In this document: piece by piece, positions 5,417-10,375 of the stretch
Layout: the number at the start of each line of letters is the position of its first letter
Numbering within the stretch: the stretch's first letter is position 1
Assembly (NCBI GenBank): GCA_964627275.1
Contig: CAZVHT010000022.1
Coordinates: forward strand, 1-14,313
Origin: an uncultured Candidatus Saccharibacteria bacterium
GTDB taxonomy: Bacteria; Patescibacteriota; Minisyncoccia; Phycocordibacterales; UBA6065
DNA length: 14,313 nt
Direction of reading: 5' to 3'
Program-made: the position numbers and the translations under genes
Notes under the pieces: generated by a model
Seen by the model: the letters and a program-made list of their open reading frames with translations, nothing else
What the model was told of the DNA's origin: nothing
Database searches by the model: none

Positions 5417-5950
5417 ATGGATATAGAAATCACAGAAGCAACCGTAAATGACGTAACTGGAATATCAGAAGTCCAAAAAGAGACGTGGCTTTCCACTTTT
5501 CCAAATGAGAAATACAACATCACACGCGAAGACATTTTGTCCGAAGATTTTTTCAGTAAAAACAGAATTGAAAAACGTAAGGAAATAATAAGCGATTCAA
5601 AATCCAATACTAAATTCTGGGTAGCGAAAAGCGACGCCAAAGTTATTGGGTATTGTTGTGCTCGGAAACTTGATGATCATAATAAAATCAGGTCAATTTA
5701 TATTCTCCCTGCTTTTCAGGGCAAAGGAATTGGCCAAAAACTCATGAGCAAGATGTTTGAATGGCTTAATCCTACAAAACCCACAAAATTAACTGTGGCG
5801 GTCTACAGCGACAAAGCAATCGCTTTCTATGAGAAGCTCGGATTCGTCAAAGGACAAAGACTCGCTAAAAATCCTGAAGGACCATTTATTACGGGCAAGG
5901 AAGTGCCTGAGATGGAGATGATAAAAGAACCTATAAAGAGGCCAAATTGA
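5417..5950 (+). CDS. GNAT family N-acetyltransferase
   Basis: 177 aa with acetyl-CoA-binding motif A, IYILPAFQGKGIGQKLM, and a FYEKLGF tail. Confidence 0.85.
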   Translation: MDIEITEATVNDVTGISEVQKETWLSTFPNEKYNITREDILSEDFFSKNRIEKRKEIISDSKSNTKFWVAKSDAKVIGYCCARKLDDHNKIRSIYILPAFQGKGIGQKLMSKMFEWLNPTKPTKLTVAVYSDKAIAFYEKLGFVKGQRLAKNPEGPFITGKEVPEMEMIKEPIKRPN

Positions 5951-5976
5951 GCCTTATTTTGAGAGCGCGGATATCC

Positions 5977-6005
5977 TTGACTTTTGTATGTTTTGGGTGT
6001 ATAAT
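5977..6005 (+). promoter_or_regulatory. Near-consensus sigma70-type promoter of the GC-rich operon
   Basis: TTGACT (5977-5982), a 17-nt spacer, then TATAAT (6000-6005). Confidence 0.65.
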
Positions 6006-6112
6006 AGTGTGTAGGATCTAAATACAGATAAAGCAAGGCAACACGCCAAGCAGTATTTGGAGAAGCTTCCCTACTGGGGAGTGTGGTTCAAAGGCCACAT
6101 AGTTCATCACAA

Positions 6113-6367
6113 ATGAAAAACGTTAGCATCGAAAACAGCCCAGTCGCTCAGAAACTCGCTGCAGCTACGCTTACCCGGGCCATCCGCAGCAAGTTCAACC
6201 TCTATCCCCACGAGCAGGCCAAGGGGATCCTCGATATGTGCAGGAAAGATGGCATCGATCCCGTGGAAGCCACGGAGTATCTCACCACCCAACTGCCGTC
6301 GATGATCACGGAGTTCCTTGTGGAAGTCCGTAAGCTCGTGGAAAAGGGTCGGACGGTCAAAGCTTGA
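6113..6367 (+). CDS. Hypothetical small protein, ORF a (84 aa from ATG 6113; ORF track gives GTG 6083)
   Basis: First ORF downstream of the consensus promoter, with GC-rich codon usage. Its stop (6365-6367) lies 5 nt before the next ATG. No family recognised. Confidence 0.55.
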   Translation: MKNVSIENSPVAQKLAAATLTRAIRSKFNLYPHEQAKGILDMCRKDGIDPVEATEYLTTQLPSMITEFLVEVRKLVEKGRTVKA

Positions 6368-6372
6368 GCACC

Positions 6373-6711
6373 ATGAAGACAATCATATCGAATCAGGTGC
6401 CTATGATCGATACCAAGTCAGGTCATTACTATGTCGAACTGGCAGATCATTGCCGAGTCGCGTTCGTAACGGATCTCGCTGGACGACACTGGGTCGAAAT
6501 CACACACATCAACCGGCCGGAGGGTAACCTTCGCCTCACCGTCAAGAGAAACTTCAAGGTGGCCATCTCTGAAGACTTCCTTTTGGAAGAATTCAACGAT
6601 CATGGTGGTAGTTGTTGGGGCATGAACAAGTGTGGTTTCCCCAAGGATATCCTCGGAGACATGGAGGGTTCTCATCTGAAAAGGGTTCATGTGACCCTCG
6701 AGCAGATCTGA
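6373..6711 (+). CDS. Hypothetical protein, ORF b (112 aa from ATG 6373; ORF track gives TTG 6364)
   Basis: Tightly coupled to ORF a with the same codon style. No family recognised. Confidence 0.55.
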   Translation: MKTIISNQVPMIDTKSGHYYVELADHCRVAFVTDLAGRHWVEITHINRPEGNLRLTVKRNFKVAISEDFLLEEFNDHGGSCWGMNKCGFPKDILGDMEGSHLKRVHVTLEQI

Positions 6712-6772
6712 CGTTTGACAACGAGTTGAAGGACTCACTAAAACTTTCAACCTAGGCCCCGATCGGTCTAGG

Positions 6773-6825
6773 TTCTGTCCGAAGATGTGTATCTTCGCTG
6801 ATGAGTCCTAAAGGACGAAACAGAA
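6773..6825 (+). ncRNA. Type III hammerhead self-cleaving ribozyme
   Basis: Stem III is TTCTGT (6773-6778) paired with ACAGAA (6820-6825). The cleavage triplet is GUC, with C17 at 6779. Stem I is CGAAGAT/ATCTTCG (6780-6786/6791-6797) with loop GTGT. The core CTGATGA is at 6798-6804. Stem II is GTCC/GGAC with loop TAAA (6805-6816). GAAA is at 6817-6820. All conserved core positions are canonical. Confidence 0.85.
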
Positions 6826-6920
6826 AGTTCTTTGAATAGTTGAGTTTGGAAGGAAAGAAGCGATTGACTTGCTGGCATAAAGCCATGCGAATCGTAGATT
6901 TCCTCACTAAACTCAACATC

Positions 6921-7340
6921 ATGAAAAAACAATTAATAAAAAAGAAAGTCAGCAAGAAAAAACCGTCTTTCGTGTTCATCGTCGATTCGTACGAGGATGG
7001 CACGCTCCGCCGTGGGCTCGAAGATATGGGGCTCAACCACGAAAACGACTACCACATCACAGGTGCTGGTGGTGCGGACTGGATCATGGCGAATTACGAA
7101 GGACGCCGTATCGCGGACACCCTGAATCTGCTCGTCGTCATGAGCACTTTTCACGGATCGGTCGCACCAGCGGTCGAGCTCTGCAAACAGGTGAAAGCGG
7201 TTAACTCCAAGGCGCGGTTTATCTTCCGGAGCCAGACCTCCAGCCCGTCCGATCCGTTATTCGAAGCCTGTATGGACAAGAGCTTCGAAGACAATAAAAA
7301 ACTCCTCGCGATCATCAAGAAGTTTTTTGGAAAGAAATAG
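6921..7340 (+). CDS. Hypothetical protein, ORF c, with a receiver (CheY-like)/flavodoxin-like pattern that lacks the phospho-acceptor Asp
   Basis: 139 aa from ATG 6921 (in-frame alternatives are ATG 6885 and TTG 6840). It has a Lys-rich N-terminus, then an alternating beta-alpha pattern: FVFIVDS, LNLLVVMS, ARFIFRS, then a Lys in MDKSF. The fold call is inference from this pattern only. Confidence 0.5.
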   Translation: MKKQLIKKKVSKKKPSFVFIVDSYEDGTLRRGLEDMGLNHENDYHITGAGGADWIMANYEGRRIADTLNLLVVMSTFHGSVAPAVELCKQVKAVNSKARFIFRSQTSSPSDPLFEACMDKSFEDNKKLLAIIKKFFGKK

Positions 7341-7395
7341 TGGTATACCCACTCGGTGAAGTAACCGTAGCGCAAGCTAGAAACTTTCAAAAACA

Positions 7396-7424
7396 CCGCA
7401 TGGTTCGCCCAGCGGTTTTGTTTT
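7396..7424 (+). terminator. Rho-independent terminator of the GC-rich operon
   Basis: CCGCatGG TTCG CCcaGCGG forms a hairpin with a UUCG tetraloop. TTTTGTTTT follows. Confidence 0.75.
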
Positions 7425-7463: not shown

Positions 7464-7985
7464 ATGTCAGATGCACAGAAGGTCGCAAAAACACTAACTC
7501 ACATAATAATCCCGCTTCTCGAAAAATATGATTTTCGATGGGTAATTACGGGTGGGTTTGCCTCTCATGTATATGGAGTGGAGCGTCCTATCACTGATGT
7601 GGATATAGACATCGACACCTCAAAGGACTCACCTGCCTTTAAAGCCTTCACAGGGGAACTCAAGGAATTTATTACCGAACCCCTCAATCATTTTGTTGAT
7701 CAGAATTACGATAACTATAATTTCGAAGTAACATTTGATGGCGTCATATTTGATTTCTGTCCAATGAAGGAGATGAACATTTTTGATAAGGAGACAAATA
7801 AATATATCCCGTTTTATGCAAACGGATTTCCTGATTCAGAAATGGTTGAATGGAATGGTCTTAAATTACCGCTTCTTTCAAAAGAACTCGTTATTAAAAA
7901 TAAAGAGATGTTGGTTTGGCAGAGAGAGTCAGACTTTAAAGATATTGAGCAGCTTAAGAAATTGAATAGTTTAGGTCTTAGATAA
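7464..7985 (+). CDS. Nucleotidyltransferase-fold protein
   Basis: 173 aa. The NTase signature GGFASHVYGVERPITDVDIDID fits G-[GS]-x(9-13)-D-x-D. An extended -10 (TGaTATACT, 7449-7457) ends 6 nt before the ATG, suggesting a leaderless mRNA. Confidence 0.7.
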   Translation: MSDAQKVAKTLTHIIIPLLEKYDFRWVITGGFASHVYGVERPITDVDIDIDTSKDSPAFKAFTGELKEFITEPLNHFVDQNYDNYNFEVTFDGVIFDFCPMKEMNIFDKETNKYIPFYANGFPDSEMVEWNGLKLPLLSKELVIKNKEMLVWQRESDFKDIEQLKKLNSLGLR

Positions 7986-8724: not shown

Positions 8725-9354
8725 CTAGGGTTTTGGTTTTTTAATGACTGTTGGATTTCTCTCAACTGATTCTCTGATAGAATCAAGCGTCACATGCCAC
8801 GATTGCCTGAGTTCCCACGCAAACCCTTTCTCATAAGCTATAAACTTTACTCGCTTTCCTTTTTTCAGAATCTTGTCTTTTGTCCTCAGGAAATCACTAT
8901 CACCACTAAACACATAGACTATATCTAAATCCCCCAAGTCCTCCATAATTTCATCATGCATTTCAATATCGAAATTACATTTATTTCGATAGCCCTTTGG
9001 ATCAGATGGGTCTGTTATTCTCTTTAGGTCTTTAGTCGTAACATCATAACCGATTGATTTATAGTATTTCTCTAGTGTTTCAGCAATACTTCTCTCTGGT
9101 TCAGACCTTGGTTTACCCTTGTATATTCTAGCGTATTTTATTTCACTCAATTCTGAAACCCACGCTAATATTTTTTTGTAGTCACATAGCCACCCAGTAT
9201 CTTTTCCTCGTTTATACAAATTGGAATCATCTATATAAATACCCACCTTTGGTTTCGGGGGTAAAGTCTTTTTAAATTCGTATAACGATAAATATGAGCC
9301 TCTTGCCATGTCTTTTAAAATATCACGTATTTTTGTAGTTTTCAATATCGACAC
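8725..9354 (-). CDS. NYN (LabA/DUF88-like, PIN-related) domain putative ribonuclease
   Basis: 209 aa. VGIYIDDSNLY near the N-terminus and VFSGDSDF...L..GKRV later on are hallmark NYN motifs. The start is uncertain (GTG 9354 or ATG 9309), because a TATACT box abuts the GTG. Confidence 0.8.
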   Translation of the reverse strand: MSILKTTKIRDILKDMARGSYLSLYEFKKTLPPKPKVGIYIDDSNLYKRGKDTGWLCDYKKILAWVSELSEIKYARIYKGKPRSEPERSIAETLEKYYKSIGYDVTTKDLKRITDPSDPKGYRNKCNFDIEMHDEIMEDLGDLDIVYVFSGDSDFLRTKDKILKKGKRVKFIAYEKGFAWELRQSWHVTLDSIRESVERNPTVIKKPKP

Positions 9355-9919: not shown

Positions 9920-10375
9920 ATGAAAATAATACTATCAATAATTGTGCTGATAGTAGCATCCGTTTTAATTTTGATGTTTCTTAATCCTATACATTTTGTT
10001 AATCTGAATTTGCTGAAATTAAAGTTTATACAGGTACAGAAGATACAGCTTACAGGAACTAATCTTATTTGGCAGAAAAATTATATTGGAGGTTTAGGAT
10101 CAAACGGCACTGGTGTCTGCAATTATATGATTGGCGAGTTGCGATCATTTGATGGATCGAGAGAAGAGGTGATTGAACAATATAAGAAAGTACTGGACGA
10201 TAATAATAACACTGGAATATTATTTATGAATGATGATAAGTGGCCACTTGATTCTATTCTTTGGGATTGGCGAGGTGAATTTCTTGATCAAAATAATATT
10301 GAAGAAGGAAAATATTATATCGTCTATATTTCTCAAAAATTTCCCGCATTGTTATATAATCGATGTAAGGACTAA
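9920..10375 (+). CDS. Hypothetical protein with an N-terminal membrane anchor
   Basis: 151 aa, very AT-rich, with a hydrophobic N-terminus MKIILSIIVLIVASVLILMF. No recognisable domain. Confidence 0.5.
   Translation: MKIILSIIVLIVASVLILMFLNPIHFVNLNLLKLKFIQVQKIQLTGTNLIWQKNYIGGLGSNGTGVCNYMIGELRSFDGSREEVIEQYKKVLDDNNNTGILFMNDDKWPLDSILWDWRGEFLDQNNIEEGKYYIVYISQKFPALLYNRCKD

Follow-up and report, generated by a model that had tools for sequence, protein, structure and literature searches.

The window considered here is one entire contig of 14,313 nucleotides (nt) from a genome of the Patescibacteria (candidate phyla radiation), and the element of interest is a transcription unit that runs from a promoter at 5977–6005 to an intrinsic terminator ending at 7424. 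Between these limits lie a structured leader, two closely spaced genes designated a and b, a stable hairpin that abuts a type III hammerhead ribozyme, and a third gene, c, which is preceded by a long leader hairpin of its own. All of these features are on the plus strand. The original prediction, made from the sequence alone, described a self-contained, GC-richer unit encoding three proteins without a family and proposed that the genes and the ribozyme form a toxin-antitoxin (TA) or defence-type module. The anatomical part of this description was borne out. The unit is bracketed by its own promoter and its own terminator, both conserved in related loci, and the GC counts are exactly as reported, with 34 of 60 nt at 6181–6240 compared to 14 of 60 at 9961–10020. 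The GC content of the whole unit is 48.9% versus 40.9% in the rest of the contig. At third codon positions (GC3) the fraction is 0.69 for a, 0.59 for b and 0.66 for c, and it ranges from 0.25 to 0.52 among the other 15 genes of the window. None of the three proteins matched a family in Pfam, NCBIfam, PADLOC, PHROGs or the sequences of the PDB; the PDB sequence matches that did appear were set aside as artefacts, being designed repeat proteins with no passing stretch.

The promoter has the near-consensus sigma-70 form that had been proposed, TTGACT and TATAAT separated by 17 nt, and agrees with the consensus at 11 of 12 positions, which is the joint best in the window. Promoter-like sites as a whole are no more frequent in the window than expected by chance (36 found, 33 expected), and the site at 5977–6005 is taken as real because it is conserved in related loci. 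Its fuller form, TTGAC-N14-GGGTGTATAAT (TTGAC-N14-RGNGTATAAT), was counted nine times across 80 kb of Patescibacteria loci: seven copies lie ahead of leaders of the a family, one ahead of c in a locus designated L010, and one upstream of a transfer-messenger RNA (tmRNA) gene. Besides the window, copies are found at L007 383–412, L010 5856–5886 and L057 2360–2388. Even among very distant members of the a family the spacer is kept, the window and L057 agreeing at 26 of 29 positions. The form is probably a strong consensus promoter of these organisms and not a signal specific to the cassette. Upstream of the −35 box, at 5943–5965, is a conserved A/T-rich stretch, ATTGAGCCTTATTTTGAGAG, which overlaps the stop codon of a GNAT gene. 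It is common to L013 and L009, is partly present in the remote locus L057, and from its position may be an UP element.

At the other end of the unit, the UUCG-loop terminator (7395–7424) is also present as described. Its stem, ACCGCAUGG/CCAGCGGU (7395–7416), carries a UUCG(C) loop and is followed by UUUGUUUU; the fold shows TTTGTTTT after the stem up to 7424. An identical copy was found in L010, and similar ones in L048 and L004. The stretch from the stop codon of c to the terminator (7340–7394) is conserved in L010 (6424–6478) and holds a small hairpin, GUGGUAUACCCAC, and a motif, AAACUUUCAA, that recurs just before the ribozyme hairpin (6741–6750).

The internal hammerhead between b and c is present. 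A stable hairpin, AACCUAGGCC...GGUCUAGGUU at 6749–6774 (free energy −14.7, z-score −5.5), lies flush with the 5' strand of stem III of a ribozyme at 6772–6826 that matches Rfam family RF00008 with 48.8 bits (E = 2.5e-8). The core is fully consensus, with CUGAUGA at 6797–6803, GAAA at 6816–6819 and GUC at 6777–6779. From cmscan and from folding, the stems are CGAAGAU/AUCUUCG (I), GUCC/GGAC (II) and UUCUGU/ACAGAA (III), where stems I and II are closed by loops and stem III is open. Judged by this core and fold, the ribozyme is a genuine member of the known hammerhead class, and cleavage is predicted after GUC, between C6779 and C6780. The same hairpin and hammerhead occur in L048, where the ribozyme scores 48.7 bits and differs from that of the window by two compensatory pairs in stem I, and where the upper stem of the hairpin is changed. 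The two junctions are 84% identical and placed between different genes.

An exact-pattern scan of IMG/VR identified 34 viral contigs (L014–L047) whose ribozymes share the same stem II, stem III and loop motifs. Together with the window and L048 these make 36 instances and 31 distinct sequences, 29 of them viral. The distinct sequences have 25 different stem I arms that are always complementary, and the loops UGUGUA and NAAA are conserved. With an abutting hairpin defined as one 0–5 nt before the CUGUC of stem III, a stable, GC-rich hairpin accompanies 29 of the 36 ribozymes, and in all 29 the distance is 0–2 nt. Across this set the hairpin-plus-ribozyme layout appears as a general feature of the subclass and is no peculiarity of this locus. 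In most viral instances the first ATG follows 12–30 nt past the ribozyme. Examples of the viral loci are L024 (6088–6136 and 7518–7566), L043 and L046; three viral contigs carry two such ribozymes 1–1.5 kb apart.

What found no support was the proposal that a, b, the ribozyme and c belong together. In the data searched, in which homologues are few, the three genes occur together nowhere else, and a survey of gene neighbourhoods found no conserved co-occurrence of a, b, ribozyme and c, an absence that the original prediction had itself named as refuting it. At least six further genomic contexts contain a but neither b nor c, and in three of these (L001, L004 and L009) a has its own terminator. 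L001, from a Saccharibacteria metagenome-assembled genome (MAG), consists of promoter, leader, a and terminator, and its surroundings are a defence island with GmrSD, Shedu-type SduA_C, YgjP and HTH+SocA_Panacea. In L004 and L009, a and its terminator are followed by an unrelated 108-aa (amino acid) gene and DUF6922/AbiEii. The promoter and 5' end of L004 are different and probably disrupted, with the pairing of the first helix still kept, and L009 (84–448) combines leader hairpins of the window type with an a open reading frame (ORF) and terminator identical to those of L004, which points to recombination between cassette variants. In L007, a is found downstream of smpB and tmRNA, a region that is a classic integration hotspot; the cassette (648–1036) lies about 500 nt past these genes with one minus-strand ORF between. 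L013 couples a to another, different ORF that is incomplete at the end of the contig.

The remaining loci connect the two halves of the window unit in other ways. L048, L011 and L012 share the order promoter, leader, a (90 aa), hairpin, hammerhead, long leader hairpin, a gene designated d, and a terminator like that of the window. Gene d encodes 163 aa without a family, and the L048-type unit sits between rpoB and a Bro-N gene. The possibilities that d is a tandem a-like protein or a relative of c were rejected with hhalign probabilities below 1%, and an alternative genetic code in L048 was also rejected, the seemingly empty 2.9 kb being occupied by an rpoB ORF that continues past the end of the contig. 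L010 has the same promoter type followed directly by the c leader, c and a terminator identical to that of the window, and has neither a, b nor a ribozyme. Nucleotide similarity to the window starts at the −10 box, spans the leader and a (84–87% identity) and is then lost; it resumes only at the ribozyme region in L011 and L012, or at the c leader in L010. Just past its predicted transcription start, L010 (GTACTTTAAATAG) is homologous to the window just past the ribozyme (GTTCTTTGAATAG) within a few nt, so the promoter-driven version of c would begin where the ribozyme ends. The genes that flank the cassette differ from locus to locus among those compared, and the L048 cassette is likewise GC-richer than its own flanks. 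No relatives of b, c or d were found in IMG/VR contigs or GenBank phages, and no match to the unit was found in plasmids. On the loci compared, the window operon is a one-off mosaic of modules that appear to circulate separately, and not a conserved three-part system.

The a leader is the most conserved part of the unit. The original prediction had its length right at about 100 nt (about 6012–6112, ahead of gene a), but more than the two small hairpins it had described was found. The structured region (6012–6120), as defined by RNAalifold, pair counts and a covariance model, contains five helices: a long bipartite hairpin made of an outer helix, UCUAAAUAC/GUAUUUGGA, and an inner GC-AA-GGC hairpin; two short hairpins, CUUCCC/GGGGAG and GUGG/CCAC; and a small helix, UUCAU/AUGAA, that pairs the start codon. 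In seven close leader sequences, 99.5% of cells are paired compared to 32–49% in slid controls, with compensatory changes in the bipartite and the two short hairpins and an invariant start-codon helix. In remote members of the a family, whose proteins are about 25% identical, the leader follows the same architecture with different helix sequences. A covariance model built from the close set alone recovered five remote leaders with E-values from 7e-12 to 6e-5, the next match having an E-value of 0.3. In an alignment of 11 leaders, pairing extends to 96% of cells and both partners have changed in 18 of 30 pairs, although this alignment was fitted to the covariance model, which favours structure, and leaves the first hairpin unaligned in L055 and L056. 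It replaced a MAFFT alignment of the distant leaders in which the first hairpin was misaligned. A long-range helix between the 5' end of the transcript and the region before the a AUG was also considered on the basis of two sequences and rejected, since it was unsupported by L007, L009 and L013.

The leader precedes every examined member of the a family, always with the last helix pairing the AUG; copies are located at L001 5897–6048, L052 3894–4048, L056 2395–2545, L057 2394–2545, L058 2399–2548 and L055 4028–4168. No match was found among 4227 Rfam families, one exact-pattern scan of JGI metagenomes returned three loci only, and neither the a leader nor the c leader had a match in viral contigs. 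From its conservation and pairing, the a leader looks like a new, previously undescribed cis-regulatory leader; it may sense a ligand, bind protein a or do no more than stabilise the mRNA.

Gene a (6113–6367, 84 aa) is a real gene, since its ratio of nonsynonymous to synonymous substitution is low (0.12–0.33) and its variation is concentrated at third positions (20, 16 and 47 variable columns by codon position). Among 5.8 billion protein clusters, a word-indexed homology search identified five close homologues with 70–85% identity, and a profile search of 1.84 billion representatives extended the family to about 30 remote clusters. Members are either single-domain (81–99 aa) or tandem two-domain proteins (152–164 aa), and none matched a Pfam or PHROG family. 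Two members have an organism name, one being from a Paceibacterota MAG and the other from an unclassified bacterial MAG, and a search of the a profile against 185,579 genome representatives identified one species, a Saccharibacteria MAG. As judged from these members, the a family is an unnamed small-protein family found so far only in Patescibacteria. Its remote relatives are stand-alone chromosomal genes. The two-domain genes of about 155 aa (L052 4001–4471, L056 2501–2968 and L057 2501–2968) have a Mur ligase gene on one side and an MraY-type glycosyltransferase (PF00953) gene on the other in conserved synteny, and this cell-wall-gene synteny suggests that the wider family serves a housekeeping or envelope-related function. 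The protein is predicted to fold into three helices, with a predicted local distance difference test score (pLDDT) of 75 and a predicted template modelling score (pTM) of 0.39. A fold search with this low-pTM model gave no match, all E-values being above 2.

The second of the two tightly coupled small ORFs, b (6373–6711, 112 aa), begins 5 nt past the stop codon of a. It is an orphan that matched only itself among the 5.8 billion clusters, and nothing in the family libraries, the PDB, phages or viral contigs. From the length of its ORF and its composition only, which resembles that of a and c, b is taken to be coding.

Gene c (6921–7340, 139 aa) is preceded in its 5' untranslated region by a long imperfect hairpin of 79 nt (6839–6917) that ends 3 nt before the AUG. 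Its z-score is −5.9, that of the L010 copy is −5.5 with G-U and compensatory changes, and an analogous hairpin ahead of d in L048 has a z-score of −4.6. An ATG at 6885 was rejected as the start of c because the corresponding codon in the L010 homologue is AAG, which places the start at 6921. A single homologue of c, with 71% identity, was found among the 5.8 billion clusters. AlphaFold predicts a (beta-alpha)5 structure for c, five strands alternating with helices (pLDDT = 75, pTM = 0.71), and Foldseek matches had E-values from 8e-4 to 1e-2 overall. Receiver domains were among the best of these (TMq 0.55–0.61, E-values from 2e-3 to 1e-2), but SIS, N-deoxyribosyltransferase-like and TIR folds scored similarly. 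The receiver-like pattern without a phospho-acceptor Asp that had been read from the sequence was confirmed on the model, where strand 3 (residues 69–75, NLLVVMS) is followed by TFHG and has no Asp, as is also the case in the homologue P0002. The other receiver residues looked for were an acidic pair after strand 1, a Thr or Ser after strand 4 and a Lys after strand 5. By positions read off the secondary structure of the model, as opposed to a structural superposition, the candidates are D22 past strand 1 (E25 and D26 being close by), S104 and T106 past strand 4, and K120 at strand 5. No match to the receiver profile PF00072 was found in Pfam at E-values up to 1, nor was one found in NCBIfam or the PDB sequences. 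On its model, c belongs to the flavodoxin-like fold class, and it is not assignable to the receiver family, where both the profile and the acceptor residue fail.

Taken together, the unit is best explained as a horizontally acquired, self-contained accessory unit assembled from modules and joined by a cutting hammerhead that acts in place of a terminator and a promoter, and this explanation is considered probable, if well short of certain. Foreign origin is suggested because the GC3 of the three genes differs from that of the host genes, the L048 cassette is GC-richer than its flanks, and the flanks vary by locus. A strong consensus promoter would produce a single transcript of about 1.4 kb that extends to the terminator. 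The first module would consist of the structured leader and a, which elsewhere form a complete monocistronic unit, with the orphan b attached by close coupling. The second would consist of the long-hairpin leader, c and the terminator, which elsewhere stand directly behind the same promoter type. The hairpin and the phage-type type III hammerhead would join the two. Since a has its own terminator elsewhere and c its own promoter, the junction may be considered a replacement for both.

Self-cleavage at C6779/C6780 would leave an a-b mRNA that ends in the hairpin at 6749–6774 followed by CUGUC with a 2',3'-cyclic phosphate. Hairpins block 3' exonucleases, and the one at this 3' end would protect the mRNA as a terminator hairpin does. 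The c mRNA would have a 5'-OH end, behind which come the two ribozyme hairpins and the leader hairpin of c. 5'-OH ends escape RNases that depend on a 5'-monophosphate, and ribozymes of the RiboJ type insulate genes from their upstream context. With only six pairs in stem III, the two products should separate. Through RNA processing at the junction, one promoter would thereby serve the two modules, and the ends, stability and translation context would remain separate for the two mRNAs.

Several points weigh against this explanation. The Rfam score of the ribozyme exceeds the gathering threshold of 48.5 bits by a margin of 0.3 bits. The segment 6742–6748 (AACUUUC) can pair with 6823–6829 (GAAAGUU), which overlaps the 3' strand of stem III, and this competing pairing is part of the minimum-energy, inactive fold of 6740–6830. 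It hints that the predicted cleavage might not be constitutive; by inspection, the pairing is not kept in L048. No mobility genes, terminal repeats or target duplications were found around the unit, and a search for direct or inverted repeats as insertion scars gave nothing convincing. The junction is known in two loci only and c in one other locus, such that the module picture is drawn from few sequences.

The competing pairing also counts in favour of a different explanation, in which the hammerhead is a regulatory device for c, its cleavage modulated by pairing, ions or protein, or in which the cleaved, structured 5' end enables translation of c. No Shine-Dalgarno sequence was found for any of the window's genes, and in the leaders of a, c and d alike strong helices sit directly at the start codon. 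That cleavage is regulated has been suggested in the case of phage hammerheads (PMC3088659), and a preprint reports that RNA-virus ribozymes support translation initiation (bioRxiv 10.1101/2024.05.16.594327). This explanation is nevertheless unlikely: L048 does not conserve the competing pairing, the ribozyme has a minimal consensus form with no aptamer-like extension, and from L010, where c sits behind a promoter, the ribozyme should not be required for translation of c. Another explanation takes the hammerhead to be an inactive or irrelevant phage relic within an ordinary, uncut polycistronic operon. The score barely over threshold and the occurrence of the subclass mostly in viral contigs are compatible with a relic, but all core nucleotides are consensus, and stem I and the flanking hairpin show compensatory changes between the window and L048 where the surrounding genes are completely different. 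Compensatory changes amid differing genes point to selection on the RNA structure, and a relic is accordingly judged quite improbable.

The module proposed at the outset, in which a, b and c would act as one functional TA or defence system with the ribozyme setting the ratio of components, would account for genes that are small, tightly packed, without a known family and of foreign composition. It is also in keeping with the PemK/MazF toxin gene at 947–1333 of the window, with the GmrSD, SduA_C and SocA_Panacea genes that adjoin a in L001 and the DUF6922/AbiEii gene near it in L004, and with the fold class of c, which also holds TIR and N-deoxyribosyltransferase-like effector domains. However, the trio is not found together elsewhere, b is an orphan, a is elsewhere monocistronic with its wider family partly in conserved housekeeping synteny, and c stands alone behind its own promoter in L010. 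Nor did a, b or c match a toxin, antitoxin or defence profile in PADLOC, Pfam, NCBIfam or PHROGs. A joint module is thus rather improbable, less so than a relic but more so than a regulatory device; individual genes may have an accessory or defence-island role, given the two a loci that adjoin defence or TA genes. Least probable of all is that the unit belongs to an RNA-level mobile element whose circular or retro-mobilised RNA is released by cleavage. Hammerheads do mark circular-RNA elements and retrozymes elsewhere (PMC4918200, PMC7761336), and the modules are shuffled between genomes, but one ribozyme per unit does not define an excisable segment, no reverse transcriptase or integrase was found in the window or the related loci, and the unit is delimited by a promoter and a terminator of the ordinary kind.

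The explanation of a modular unit joined by a cutting hammerhead may be carried further, in a reading that is put forward tentatively and is on balance doubtful. The a leader would then be a new class of cis-regulatory RNA and the hairpin-hammerhead a natural, portable substitute for a terminator and promoter. The leader may sense a ligand or be bound by its own protein product, controlling translation through the pairing of the start codon, and the junction may let independent modules stack behind one promoter and shuffle between genomes. The window, L010 and L048 would together amount to a natural experiment showing such a substitute.

As a probable hammerhead-processed accessory operon of foreign origin, the locus is of a known kind. 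In prophages, hammerheads flank genes within polycistronic RNAs, and their cleavage has been observed in vivo as well as in vitro (PMC3088659). Such processing has been proposed to yield transcripts that differ in stability or translation; the purpose of these hammerheads is still open (PMC6765202). Like the hammerheads of prophages and mobile DNA (Perreault et al. 2011, PMC3088659; RF00008), the window ribozyme is a consensus type III form between co-directional genes that are accessory or of no known function in foreign-looking DNA, its neighbour genes vary by locus, and its predicted cut would give gene-length mRNAs. In contrast to them, it lies in a Patescibacteria chromosome as a single ribozyme within a 1.45-kb unit and no recognisable prophage, and a sister locus with the same gene behind a promoter shows what the junction replaces. 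It also lies about 94 nt from the next start codon, with a long leader hairpin included, where the viral examples typically have 12–30 nt.

The unit likewise resembles phage morons: it has a promoter and a terminator of its own, differs from the host in base composition and lies between unrelated host genes. It differs from them in that no prophage surrounds it and that it comprises two such units fused via a ribozyme. A further likeness is to the synthetic ribozyme insulators of the RiboJ type, which were reportedly described by Lou et al. in 2012. There, as predicted here, an upstream hammerhead strips the 5' context so that the mRNA of the gene starts at a fixed, structured 5'-OH end. The window junction is natural, and it would also leave a hairpin-capped 3' end on the upstream mRNA; insulation here is a prediction.

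Among the proteins, c shares with pseudo-receivers such as CikA (PDB: 2j48) a predicted (beta-alpha)5 fold without an Asp at the end of strand 3. Unlike receivers, it has no PF00072 match, its structural scores are weak (TM 0.5–0.6, E-values above 8e-4) and shared with SIS, TIR and N-deoxyribosyltransferase-like folds, and no kinase or output domain is encoded near it, such that it should not be filed as a receiver. The a leader resembles autoregulatory leaders and riboswitches, for example those of ribosomal proteins, in being a conserved multi-helix leader tied to one protein family with the start codon paired. It differs from the known leaders in falling outside the Rfam families searched and in its restriction, so far, to Patescibacteria.

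The rest of the window provides the setting of the unit. Its genes include gatC, gatA, a release-factor gene, ftsE, ftsX and four tRNA genes, and no prophage genes were seen. Interspersed are accessory genes, of which those with a recognisable domain encode a PemK/MazF toxin, a P-loop kinase, a PL14 lyase, a GNAT acetyltransferase and an NYN nuclease, and there is a nucleotidyltransferase-like gene with a sub-threshold Pfam match only. The toxin gene matched its Pfam family with an E-value of 1.2e-14. A second GC-richer patch of about 50% GC (333–794) holds a 153-aa ORF without a Pfam match and may be a foreign gene; the covariance model of the a leader found no match in it. Downstream of the unit, on the minus strand and of host-like composition, are genes for a 173-aa protein (7464–7985) and the NYN-domain nuclease (8725–9354). 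The 173-aa protein is weakly similar to aminoglycoside nucleotidyltransferases and to the PADLOC candidate PDC-S09 (E = 2e-3).

Since the trio is not conserved, it is not a promising new defence or TA candidate. The value of the locus lies in a clean comparison: gene c, its leader and terminator unchanged in kind, follows a promoter in one locus and, in the other, a hairpin-hammerhead junction downstream of other genes, and the junction also links a to d elsewhere. The role of hammerheads in bacterial genomes is still an open question (PMC6765202), and with these three natural constructs the idea that they act as insulators, or as substitutes for a terminator and promoter, is directly testable. 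With respect to the organisms themselves, the a leader offers a handle on a protein family that is specific to the Patescibacteria lineage.

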